Below are positions 54,898 through 59,715 of a stretch of DNA of 64,000 nucleotides, piece after piece. Both the position numbers and the translations under genes were made by a program. The stretch comes from Candidatus Spongiisociaceae bacterium (GTDB lineage Bacteria > Actinomycetota > Acidimicrobiia > Spongiisociales > Spongiisociaceae), in NCBI GenBank assembly GCA_965213975.1, contig CBDCAR010000001.1:32134-96133 (forward strand), written 5' to 3'. Numbering within the stretch: the first letter of the stretch is position 1; the number at the start of each line of letters is the position of its first letter. The notes beneath the pieces are model-generated. The model saw only the letters and a list, made by a program, of their open reading frames with translations. It was not told where the DNA came from and did no database searches.

Positions 54898-55869
54898 ATG
54901 GAACCTACCCGCCCCGCCCGTATCTCTGTGGAGAGCTGGTCGCCAGAGTACGGCAGCCCCGTAGAGACCGCCGAAACCTACGACCCGCCGCCGGTTGACC
55001 ATCAGGTCGAGACGGACCGTTGGCGGCCCCTTCCTGGTTCCTCGCGGGACGCCCCCGACGAGCTGGTGTTCGTGGACGGGGTGAGACGGATCGAAGCGCG
55101 GCTGACCCTTGACGACCCGTCGGGGGCGGTCCCAGGGGTTATGGCGGCTTTCGGGGTGGGCGCGGTGGTCTGGGACCGCGAGGCGAGGAGGTCATGGTAC
55201 GAGGGGATCACGGTCGAGAGGCTGCTGATAATGGCCGGGGGAAGATTGCTGGACCTCCAAGACGGGTTCCCAGGTCGGCTTCGTGCCGAGTCGATCCCCG
55301 AACTAGACCGGGGCAAACTAGTGGACCGTGCGCAGAGGCTCATGCGTCTAGCCGAAGCAGAATTGGCGGCCCGCATGGCCGGGCCAGGCCGCCTAGTCAT
55401 CGCCGACGGCACGATCAGCGACATCAACGCCCCTACCGACGGGGACAGCGTCGGTTACATAAAACGCCACTTCGTTGACTATCTCGCCGACGCGGAGAAG
55501 CAGGTAGTGGATCGGCTGAGGGCAGCGGAGCGCAGCCCTCTGTTCCTTATCGGCTACGGCCGTAACCCGCGCTACTCGTGGTATGTGCAGCTCGAAAACC
55601 CTGCAGACCGGCCTGCCTGGGAGAGCGTCGTCCGCTGCGAGGTCGCTGCTTCGTCGGGTATCGGCCGTGCTGTCCGGGTCGCCGACTGGACCGCCAGCCT
55701 GCTGCCCCAGTTGGGCTCTGAACGCCACATTGACCCTAGAGCACCCCAGAATCTGGTCCCGATAGGCGCTCTAGAGCGGGAGCTTTCCCGTCGGCTTGGC
55801 CCCAGAGAGTACATGTGCCGCGTCTTGGGCGACACCGTGCATCGGCACCACAGTGGGAGTTTGGGATGA
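54898..55869 (+). CDS. nurA: NurA-like nuclease
   Basis: VFVDGVRR, LVIADG, GYIKRH, RYSWY, DPRAPQNL.PI.ALE..L.RRLG. Confidence 0.8.
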   Translation: MEPTRPARISVESWSPEYGSPVETAETYDPPPVDHQVETDRWRPLPGSSRDAPDELVFVDGVRRIEARLTLDDPSGAVPGVMAAFGVGAVVWDREARRSWYEGITVERLLIMAGGRLLDLQDGFPGRLRAESIPELDRGKLVDRAQRLMRLAEAELAARMAGPGRLVIADGTISDINAPTDGDSVGYIKRHFVDYLADAEKQVVDRLRAAERSPLFLIGYGRNPRYSWYVQLENPADRPAWESVVRCEVAASSGIGRAVRVADWTASLLPQLGSERHIDPRAPQNLVPIGALERELSRRLGPREYMCRVLGDTVHRHHSGSLG

Positions 55870-57873: not shown

Positions 57874-59715
57874 ATGCCACACGGTGCCGCGGCCATCGTG
57901 TGCGACGACAGCGGCGTCGAACACGTCCCCGCAACGGTCGGGGAATGGGACGGCTGGGTGGCAGCGTCCGCTACCCGCAACTATGTGCTCGGCTGCCCCA
58001 TGCTCGACTGGCTCGACCATTATGGCCCCACCAAAGGCTACGAACCGGACGAAACAGACGAAGCCACCGACTTCCAGGCGTTCATCTTCCGCAAAGGAAA
58101 CCAGTTCGAGCGGTCCGTTATCCGCCTTCTACGCGGCTTCGGTGTCGGCGAAGTACGAACCATCCGCAGCAGCCGCAGGAGCGCGTCGCGTGACATCGAC
58201 GCCGCGTACGCGACGTGGGAAGCGATGGCCGAAGGTGTCCCCATCATCGACCAGGGCGTGTTACGCGACCCCCAGCACCGGACCTACGGGATGCCCGACC
58301 TGCTGGTACGCAGCGACACCCTGACACGGATCTTCCCCACCACAACGGCGGTGCCCGATGTGGCGGCCCCCGCCCTGGGCTTCGGCGGCCACTACGTGGT
58401 CGTGGACATCAAATACACCACGCTGCGTCTCAAAGCCGACCTGACCGCGGTACGCGCGCACAGCGGATCGACCCTGGCGTACAAGACACAGTTACACGTT
58501 TACAACCGGGCGCTCGCCCGCCTGCAGGGCTACCGGCCGCCCCACATGTTCCTACTCGGCCGCGGCTGGGAACACCAACACCGGGGCGTGACCGTCAGGA
58601 CAGGACACTGCTTCGACCGTCTCGGACCCGTCGCCCACAACGAGACCGCCCGCCGACAGCCTCTCAGCAGATGGGCCGCAGAAGCAGCCGACTGGGTACG
58701 CCGAATGCGACGAGAAGGCCACAACTGGGAAGCCCTGCCCGCCCCGACGGTCGACGAGCTACGACCACCCGCCGGGAACAGTCTGGGACGCTGGCGGAGC
58801 GCCGTCAAACATGTCGTAACACAAAGCGGCGACCTCACCGAGCTGTACCAGGTAGGCGCGACGGTGCGGGACACGGCGAACACAGTCGGGCTGTCGGACT
58901 GGTCTGACCCGCGGGTCACCGCAGCGACGCTCAGCATCACCGGCGAGAAAGCAAGACTGCTCGACGCGTGCCTTGACGTGAACCGCACACCAGGCCCCGG
59001 AGTGCGCCCCCAACAGGTGACCGCGGCCCGTTCCGACTGGATCGACATACCACCGGTCGAGTTCTACGTAGATTTCGAGACCGTCAGCGACCTAGACGAC
59101 GACTTCTCCGCCCTCCCCCACCGCGGCGGGCAGCCAACCATCTTCATGATCGGATGCGGACACGTCGAAGACGGCGAATGGCGGTTCGCCTGCTTCGTAG
59201 CCGACACCCTCACCGAACCCGCCGAAGCCCGCATCGTCGAAGAATGGCTCGACCACATGGACACAGTCAAGGACAGGCTCAACCCCGAAGGATCACCGTC
59301 GCCGCGGGTGTTCCACTGGTCCCACGCCGAAACGTCCACACTCTCCACCGCGTACAACTCGGCAGCCAAACGGCACGGACCCCGCAGCGGACGGTGGTCC
59401 ACCCCCCAATGGTTCGACTTCCTCACACAGGTCATGCGCGCCGAACCGGTCGTGATACGCGGAGCGCACGGATTCGGTCTCAAAGCTGTCACGAACGCTC
59501 TCCACACACAGGGCCTGATCCCGACCCGCTGGGGCACCGGACCCGCCGACGGGCTAGGCGCAATGGTCGGTGCCTGGTGGTGCCAGAACGAAATCCGCGA
59601 AGGACGCGCCGAACGGCTCACCGACCTAGAACTAATGCGGCAGATACGCGCCTACAACGAAGCCGACTGCCGAGCCATCCGAGAGATCGTCGCCTACCTA
59701 CGAGCCAACCACTAA
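57874..59715 (+). CDS. TM0106-like RecB (PD-D/ExK) nuclease + RNase H-like domain
   Basis: GMPDLLVR, VVDIK, YKTQL..Y; C-terminal YVDFET, FHW, FGLK, YNEADC. Confidence 0.85.
   Translation: MPHGAAAIVCDDSGVEHVPATVGEWDGWVAASATRNYVLGCPMLDWLDHYGPTKGYEPDETDEATDFQAFIFRKGNQFERSVIRLLRGFGVGEVRTIRSSRRSASRDIDAAYATWEAMAEGVPIIDQGVLRDPQHRTYGMPDLLVRSDTLTRIFPTTTAVPDVAAPALGFGGHYVVVDIKYTTLRLKADLTAVRAHSGSTLAYKTQLHVYNRALARLQGYRPPHMFLLGRGWEHQHRGVTVRTGHCFDRLGPVAHNETARRQPLSRWAAEAADWVRRMRREGHNWEALPAPTVDELRPPAGNSLGRWRSAVKHVVTQSGDLTELYQVGATVRDTANTVGLSDWSDPRVTAATLSITGEKARLLDACLDVNRTPGPGVRPQQVTAARSDWIDIPPVEFYVDFETVSDLDDDFSALPHRGGQPTIFMIGCGHVEDGEWRFACFVADTLTEPAEARIVEEWLDHMDTVKDRLNPEGSPSPRVFHWSHAETSTLSTAYNSAAKRHGPRSGRWSTPQWFDFLTQVMRAEPVVIRGAHGFGLKAVTNALHTQGLIPTRWGTGPADGLGAMVGAWWCQNEIREGRAERLTDLELMRQIRAYNEADCRAIREIVAYLRANH

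Follow-up and report, generated by a model that had tools for sequence, protein, structure and literature searches.

A probable mosaic operon of nurA, a PLD nuclease-ATPase gene and a dual-nuclease gene on a Candidatus Spongiisociaceae replicon

In Deinococcus radiodurans, the nuclease NurA and HerA form an end-resection module (DR0836/DR0837), in whose bacterial complex (PDB: 7f6d) NurA is reported to dock on the N-terminal HAS-barrel face of HerA (PMC9960219). A PLD nuclease with a single HKD motif is coupled to an NTP-hydrolysing motor in SauUSI (type IV, PDB: 7clg; PMC7913695), in MtsD of the MANTIS/Gao_RL system, and in NgoAVII/CglI (PMC4267654, PMC5861437); single-HKD subunits pair into one active site in BfiI and in MtsD (for MtsD, bioRxiv 10.64898/2026.09.23.753747). 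A further architecture, the two-headed nuclease, is represented by the TM0106 family (TIGR03491/COG2251, PF13482 RNase_H_2), and Cas4 (PDB: 8d3l) offers a counterpart to the first of its heads. Here we describe a block of three genes, at positions 54898–59715 of a 64,000-nucleotide (nt) stretch of Candidatus Spongiisociaceae DNA (the window), which sets side by side a nurA gene, a PLD nuclease-ATPase gene and a gene for a dual nuclease. The genome, which is acidimicrobial, comprises a 2.43-Mb chromosome (C1) and a 182.7-kb replicon (C2), and the window is C2:32134–96133. We conclude that the block is probably a mosaic operon, a singleton specific to its lineage, and not a conserved system.

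The initial annotation had described three tightly coupled genes, and we reproduce that layout: the first two share an ATGA overlap at 55866–55869 (−4 bp), the second and third are spaced by +1 bp (TGA c ATG, 57870–57876), and all three frames are open and intact, with the codon pattern rich in third-position GC that is found in real genes of the same genome. The parts of the block are as follows:

54898–55869, plus strand: orphan nurA paralogue (P0001, 323 amino acids), predicted NurA 5'-3' nuclease; no linked herA
55866–57872, plus strand: P0002 (668 amino acids), predicted single-HKD PLD nuclease plus P-loop ATPase of the ring-helicase type, resembling superfamily 3 (SF3); Pfam PF27394 'Aq_aa27'
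55866–55884, plus strand: herA-derived 5' end of P0002, a start codon plus five codons (MTAEDS) with the ATGA overlap; an inherited nurA-herA junction
57874–59715, plus strand: P0003 (613 amino acids), predicted Cas4/RecB-like PD-(D/E)xK nuclease plus DEDDy 3'-5' exonuclease, of TM0106-like architecture

The domain assignments of P0001–P0003, set out below from domain, motif and fold evidence, agree with the earlier tally of four domains of nuclease type plus a single NTPase. The reported absence of HerA and of a methyltransferase is likewise borne out inside the block, yet two herA genes are present elsewhere in the genome and methyltransferases elsewhere in the window.

Occurrence of the three genes elsewhere

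We assembled 168 loci: 82 for P0002 (80 from species-representative genomes, at 60–86% identity and with flanks of at most 8 kb, plus two exact look-ups), 84 for P0003 (80 from a metagenome scan plus four look-ups), and two for nurA. When these were searched by tblastn with P0001, P0002, P0003 and HerA, 82 yielded P0002 only, 84 yielded P0003 only, and two yielded NurA with HerA; at none of the 168 does one of the three genes have another beside it. Put another way, neither NurA nor a dual-nuclease gene lies within ~8 kb of the PLD-ATPase at any of the 82 loci, NurA and the PLD-ATPase are missing from all 84 dual-nuclease loci, and both of the looked-up nurA loci carry herA-mre11-rad50 instead. 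The initial annotation had proposed an undescribed multi-gene system for defence or DNA-end processing, a proposal that was to fall if the genes never occur together elsewhere. That is what we found, and the proposal is refuted on its own terms.

Nor does the trio occur in the genomes of the same genus that we searched, which are labelled Candidatus Spongiisocius: G305 and G306 (whose loci are L004 and L003, respectively) carry the PLD-ATPase alone, and in one same-genus genome (OZ241858.1) the homologues of P0002 and P0003 are 1.7 Mb apart. We considered that these last two genes might form a two-gene cassette, and rejected it: they are never adjacent elsewhere in the loci searched, and are widely separated in OZ241858.1. 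A class-wide sample of 301 genomes is uninformative on co-occurrence: P0003 was matched there in the window's own genome only.

Scans against PADLOC, NCBIfam, Pfam and PHROGs produced no system-level match. Assignment to a named anti-phage system was rejected in particular: PADLOC-DB v2 gave no match for P0001 or P0003, and for P0002 only partial-domain matches, to ZacB (the PLD part, 1.9e-7) and to mad8 (the ATPase part, 1.4e-5). A literature search on ZacB, mad8, Aq_aa27 and PF27394 returned no relevant report.

Neither P0002 nor P0003 has a conserved partner gene according to the clustering of flanking open reading frames (ORFs) and the Pfam scans. All-against-all clustering found a neighbour common to at most 11 of 83 P0002 loci, and those instances reflect lineage synteny; the gene context differs in every P0002 or P0003 locus that was looked up individually. 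Among the 144 ORFs nearest to P0002 homologues, the families most often recorded by the Pfam scan were HsdM (7), Schlafen/AlbA_2 (6), AAA_14-DUF4143 (4), Fic (3) and AbiEii-type AAA_21 (3). Among the 108 ORFs nearest to P0003 homologues, the top family was RmuC, with three, and the neighbourhoods are mostly ordinary. More remote relatives of P0002 are solitary genes among toxin-antitoxin (TA) modules on Acetobacteraceae plasmids. Bearing in mind that the two genes share no loci, have no conserved neighbour and occur elsewhere as solitary copies, we conclude that P0002 and P0003 are self-contained, horizontally moving single-gene modules.

Each of the seven HsdM neighbours of P0002 homologues is an ORF of ~690 amino acids immediately downstream. 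A same-strand ORF of that size, ~40–90 bp downstream of the PLD-ATPase, was also noted at six Latescibacterota loci (L057, L061, L062, L066, L071 and L075); it appears to be the HsdM type I methylase so counted, which is the sole hint of a methylase link and appears confined to one lineage.

Some further observations concern the spread of the PLD-ATPase. Its homologues (L003–L082) are 60–86% identical across metagenome-assembled genomes (MAGs) of Acidimicrobiia, Dehalococcoidia, Caldilineaceae and Latescibacterota; this identity is unusually high across phyla and suggests that the gene has spread horizontally, and recently, among inhabitants of a single habitat. Several organism or isolate names of these genomes (e.g., Candidatus Spongiisocius/Spongiisociaceae) suggest marine-sponge sources, judged from the names. 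The family is lost as well as gained, since a related genome contains a pseudogenised PLD-ATPase fragment (G311:C1:951852–952391) with three TGA codons and one TAG codon inside it. On the conjugative plasmid pKNA08 of Komagataeibacter nataicola (L170), a remote PLD-ATPase homologue adjoins a DUF2442 gene among TA modules; just upstream of our block, at 52312–54187 of the window, there are also DUF2442/DUF4160 modules.

The joint between nurA and the PLD-ATPase gene

A key observation to emerge from comparison with the chromosome is that window positions 54915–55884 align with C1:2420881–2419882 at 80.9% identity over 1000 nt, a match that continues past the nurA stop codon and the ATGA overlap into the first 19 nt of herA. 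Of these 19 nt, 18 are identical to the start of chromosomal herA, which encodes MTVEDS where the window encodes MTAEDS. The chromosomal homology collapses after 55884; positions 55893–57848 share 88.6% identity with a stand-alone PLD-ATPase gene from a same-genus genome, and the native start of that gene reads V-P-K-L-E-P. The recombination joint lies within 55885–55892. Since the one homology ends at 55884 and the other begins at 55893, the PLD-ATPase ORF was joined, in frame, to the initial six codons of a herA gene, start codon included. The ATGA overlap is then an inheritance from nurA-herA, and not the sign of a designed operon. The exchange of N-termini should be tolerated and harmless, because the replaced segment is variable and disordered in the family: the first 17 residues of P0002 are unstructured in its predicted model and differ among homologues. 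Downstream of the block, blastn, tblastx and tblastn detected no remnant of herA. At the second joint, the 1-bp gap, P0003 follows P0002 directly, with its native N-terminus.

It is because the arrangement is absent from the 168 loci and from 41 related genomes, and because homology boundaries fall at the joint, that we favour a mosaic origin. The initial annotation had raised the possibility that the PLD-fused ATPase may replace HerA; this holds at the level of DNA and gene position, in that the PLD-ATPase is fused behind six codons of herA and follows nurA, and it did not survive beyond gene position. We also considered that the joint might be an assembly chimera, given that the sequence was assembled, as two contigs, in the manner of a metagenome. 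That explanation can hardly be credited, because there is no near-identical repeat at the joint to collapse across, since the nurA copy and its chromosomal counterpart share only 81% identity; furthermore, the joint is in frame and encodes a full-length protein, and the sequence that flanks it is unique in the genome on both sides.

The identity of P0001 emerges from its family. Alone, it falls below the Pfam PF09376 cutoff (17.8 versus 21 bits), which its chromosomal paralogue, 80% identical, clears with 29.7 bits. A profile built from P0001 and 14 homologues matches D. radiodurans NurA (7f6d_H, E=4.7e-40) and Thermotoga maritima TM1739 (E=5.7e-21). All 68 family-invariant residues are kept in P0001, including Asp60, Glu153, Asp170 and His191, and among them are the acidic residues of the VDG/ADG motifs, for which a catalytic role is predicted. 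Judged by these matches, P0001 is a genuine NurA. Three nurA copies occur in the genome:

C1:2413404–2420910: chromosomal nurA-herA-mre11-rad50 operon (the nurA gene itself at C1:2420910–2419897)
C2, straddling the left edge of the window: mre11-rad50-nurA-herA set, with mre11 at window positions 2572–3789 and rad50 at 2–2590, both on the minus strand, and a diverged nurA-herA pair just outside the window (C2:28643–31305)
Window 54898–55869: P0001, the sole copy in the genome without linked herA

The genome thus holds two full end-resection sets, one on the chromosome and one on C2, plus the orphan nurA. Its two herA genes are the chromosomal one and another on the same replicon, ~57 kb from the block, which is the nearest. 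In the related genomes, the pattern for nurA is that of a housekeeping gene: 37 of 41 contain it, nearly always as a single copy, and herA is adjacent to it or 3.5–10.5 kb away at 37 of the 39 nurA places outside the window, the two places without linked herA both being on fragmentary contigs. The nurA loci that were looked up have the order nurA-herA-mre11-rad50, and their herA product matches D. radiodurans HerA (E=5e-119). P0001 therefore resembles the Deinococcus protein as a NurA, and its paralogue and orthologues lie in nurA-herA-mre11-rad50 operons, but this copy departs from them: only 19 nt of herA are left beside it, mre11 and rad50 are lacking, and in their place stand a PLD-ATPase and a dual nuclease, as at no other nurA examined. 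Also of note is that most same-genus genomes carry a different type of nurA (~34% identical), with herA 4.1 kb away; the window's genome and one congener have the type in which nurA and herA are adjacent, as is usual in the family's other genera. An exchange may thus have affected the chromosomal operon too.

With two other complete nurA-herA sets in the genome, each linked to mre11-rad50, the question arises as to whether the orphan nurA is surplus, left behind when a nurA-herA duplicate was disrupted, in which case the operon would be accidental and at least nurA would be functionless. The loss of herA from this copy, with no remnant downstream, is compatible with such decay, as are the truncated insertion-sequence (IS) remnants that fill the region and the pseudogenised PLD-ATPase in G311. 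We consider decay unlikely: the three frames are intact, every family-invariant residue is retained, and the orphan nurA shows no excess of change. P0001 and the chromosomal nurA are 81% identical in nucleotides and ~80% in amino acids. In a relative-rate test with 13 outgroups, 20 derived changes were assigned to the orphan and 19 to the chromosomal copy, and at highly conserved columns the figures were three and four, respectively; there is no sign of decay, and no acceleration versus the chromosomal copy. Between P0001 and its chromosomal paralogue (dS 0.67), the ratio of nonsynonymous to synonymous substitution rates (dN/dS) is 0.145; for P0002 it is 0.28 and 0.19 against two same-genus stand-alone copies, and for P0003 it is 0.23. 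All three genes are thus under purifying selection (0.145–0.28), although, over a dS of 0.3–0.7, these ratios mostly integrate time before the joint, which is itself undatable.

The PLD-ATPase and the dual nuclease compared with described enzymes

No sequence relatives of P0002 or P0003 with solved structures were found, and their folds therefore had to be predicted. In P0002 (AlphaFold pLDDT 86.9), the PLD domain exceeds the Pfam PF13091 (PLDc_2) cutoff (28.3 versus 27 bits), and the PLD half is matched in fold by R.NgoAVII (4rct_A), BfiI (2c1l_A) and SauUSI; by motif and fold, the protein belongs to the PLD/HKD superfamily. The residues of the HxK..GSxN motif (His132, Lys134, Ser150 and Asn152) are invariant in 41 sequences of the family, down to 22% identity. 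In the same 41 sequences, there is no variation in Walker A (Gly382, Gly387 and Lys388), in Walker B (Asp432), in Asn465, which is the asparagine of an SF3-type motif C, or in Arg478, a candidate arginine finger. The best folds for the ATPase half are ring ATPases of the SF3/AAA+ class: SCCmec Cch (5dgk), papillomavirus E1 (2v9p), NrS-1 (6k9e) and poxvirus D5/E5 (8hwc). Against SauUSI, this half reaches a TM score of 0.13–0.16 only.

P0002 is therefore like SauUSI, NgoAVII/CglI and MtsD, its nearest working counterparts, in linking a single-HKD PLD nuclease to an NTP-hydrolysing motor, whereas their motors belong to superfamily 2 (SF2) and that of P0002 is SF3/AAA+-like; we rejected its classification as a PLD-SF2 restriction enzyme of the SauUSI/MtsD type on account of the ATPase folds and Asn465. 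In addition, MtsD has MtsABC as partners, whereas P0002 has neither MtsABC nor a cognate methyltransferase, and stands alone in 82 of 82 other loci. A type II restriction-modification enzyme of the NgoFVII/BfiI type was also rejected, with no methyltransferase in the block and HsdM found at only 7 of 144 homologue neighbours. No target-recognition or B3-like domain was recognised in P0002, and its homologues are absent from the viral contigs of IMG/VR. Every close homologue carries a precomputed assignment to PF27394, 'Aq_aa27', a family named after an ORF of an Aquifex aeolicus plasmid; the RefSeq label is 'restriction endonuclease PLD domain-containing protein'. P0002 belongs to this family, in which it alone has a herA-derived N-terminus and operon partners.

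The resemblance of the P0002 ATPase to the ring helicases Cch, E1 and D5 bears upon an alternative, since HerA is likewise a ring motor. In this scenario the block would be a newborn machine, in which NurA has been re-partnered with a PLD-ATPase that feeds it DNA in the manner of HerA, with the ends then finished by the dual nuclease, the whole shredding DNA for defence or processing its ends. It is in keeping with such a machine that the PLD-ATPase sits exactly in the herA slot with inherited translational coupling, that the gene spacing is very tight, and that three intact genes are under purifying selection, with no acceleration of nurA. On the other hand, P0002 presents a PLD domain at its N-terminus, where HerA has the HAS-barrel face on which NurA is reported to dock (PMC9960219); the PLD-ATPase and the dual nuclease occur without NurA everywhere else, and the arrangement is unique among the 168 loci and 41 relatives; and the purifying selection is mostly older than the joint. 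We regard this re-partnering as unlikely.

The N-terminal half of P0003 contains the PD-(D/E)xK motif residues Asp142, Asp178 and Lys180, with a QxxxY motif (Gln206 and Tyr210), and its C-terminal half the DEDDy residues Asp400 and Glu402 (DxE) and Tyr594 and Asp598 (YxxxD). In a confidently predicted model (pLDDT 92.8, pTM 0.90), the best folds are Cas4 (8d3l_I), RNase T and the exonuclease domain of PolB. The N-terminal domain is Cas4-like, but P0003 has no CRISPR association. Its two-headed architecture is shared with the TM0106 family, and weak matches to TIGR03491 and PF13482 are present, but the TIGR03491 score is far below the curated cutoff (20.5 versus 97.45 bits) and covers residues 40–148 only. 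P0003 has more than 1100 full-length homologues and represents a separate and unnamed family of 600-residue proteins, with the same architecture as TM0106 yet distinct from it. P0003 was not matched on plasmids, in cultured phage records or in PHROGs. Full-length dual-nuclease homologues, 20–37% identical, occur on 39 IMG/VR viral contigs (L171–L209), many of which are labelled GVMAG (giant-virus MAGs) or are 200–350 kb long. Both PF27394 and the dual-nuclease family are catalogued and experimentally uncharacterised.

Replicon setting, assembly and function of the block

The block lies in a recombination-prone, IS-littered accessory region of a 183-kb replicon with conjugation-type genes. Its immediate surroundings comprise:

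54593–54811, minus strand: left-flank tnpB remnant (IS605-type), internally deleted, consisting of a 3' end (54593–54715) and an internal piece (54717–54811)
59799–60353, plus strand: candidate fourth co-directional ORF, 184 amino acids, zinc-ribbon-like, start codon uncertain
60386–60842, minus strand: right-flank truncated tnpB remnant, the C-terminal 149 codons with a Cas12f1-like TNB zinc-finger domain (PF07282, E=1.5e-14)

Positions 54593–54715 and 60386–60511 form a direct repeat of 123–126 nt, at 96–100% identity, that corresponds to the 3' end of tnpB and encodes the final 36 residues of the TnpB fragment; 54717–54811 matches the interior of other tnpB copies, ~630 nt further in. The repeat, at lengths of 110–175 nt, is present in eight copies on C2 and in none on the 2.4-Mb chromosome; four are at window positions 54593–54715, 60386–60560, 5833–6007 and 12599–12710, and C2 has four more. 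Some copies adjoin full-length tnpB frames (e.g., the one ending at ~6007 on the plus strand) and others are short remnants; the two that flank the block are truncated. The candidate fourth ORF contains two CxCG..CxxC zinc-ribbon-like repeats followed by an Ala/Asp-rich helical tail; its GC content by codon position is coding-like (0.70/0.53/0.75), and it has no family match in Pfam or PHROG scans. GC content is lower around the block, where the DUF2442/DUF4160 modules are accompanied by helix-turn-helix modules, and a promoter and terminator scan of 53500–61000 gave no signal that exceeded shuffled expectation. Elsewhere in the window are type I restriction-modification genes, a giant DEAD+UvrD helicase, a type IIG-like methylase, Fic, an integrase, VirB4- and VirB6-like conjugation genes, and TA-like modules.

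We hypothesize that the mosaic operon arose when a diverged copy of the nurA-herA junction recombined with a stand-alone gene for a PLD nuclease with an SF3-like ATPase. Because the latter is fused behind the start and five codons of herA, it would now be translated from the ribosome-binding region of herA and be coupled to nurA through the ATGA overlap. Another stand-alone gene, for the Cas4-like and DEDDy nuclease, would then have come to abut it at a 1-bp gap, and the three genes may be co-transcribed. The PLD-ATPase would keep the role that it has elsewhere, most probably that of a self-contained, NTP-driven enzyme that cuts foreign DNA; as it has a single HKD motif, its subunits may pair into one PLD active site, with the ring ATPase as motor. 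The dual nuclease may independently trim DNA ends, through Cas4-like cleavage of 5' flaps or ends and 3'-5' degradation by the DEDDy domain, and NurA, if active, could be served in trans by either HerA. Overall, several DNA-degrading activities would be stacked on one mobile replicon without having to cooperate. For P0002, a putative role in defence is consistent with fold and mobility, with neighbours that are partly defence-like, and with a location on plasmids among TA genes. For P0003, a role in repair or recombination is as likely as one in defence, since its neighbourhoods are mostly ordinary and relatives are found on giant-virus-labelled contigs.

Several points weigh against a mosaic without joint function. 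Spacings of −4 and +1 bp among genes of three origins are tighter than random accretion would lead one to expect, and could reflect selection for co-expression or joint function; the in-frame joint, which keeps a full-length enzyme, suggests selection too. That nurA is unrelaxed despite having no linked herA may indicate that it has a role in the operon. Moreover, the activity and expression of all three proteins are predicted only, as is the putative defence role of the stand-alone families, and the lineage is under-sampled in databases, such that unsequenced relatives may carry the same trio.

If the newborn machine were nevertheless real, it would show that complexes for DNA-end processing or defence can swap their motors in nature. 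The mosaic operon we favour has other consequences. It removes a false lead: tight spacing and striking domains suggested an undescribed system for defence, yet part of that spacing is inherited, and the trio is found nowhere else that was searched. It also provides a dated-by-sequence example of how operons may be assembled on mobile replicons, by the in-frame hijack of a resident start codon and its translational coupling, which would place a foreign gene under the control of the resident operon. Finally, it adds context for two large, mobile and experimentally untouched nuclease families that exist as single-gene modules across several phyla: the Aq_aa27 PLD-ATPases and the Cas4-like/DEDDy proteins are better targets for experiment than the trio itself.

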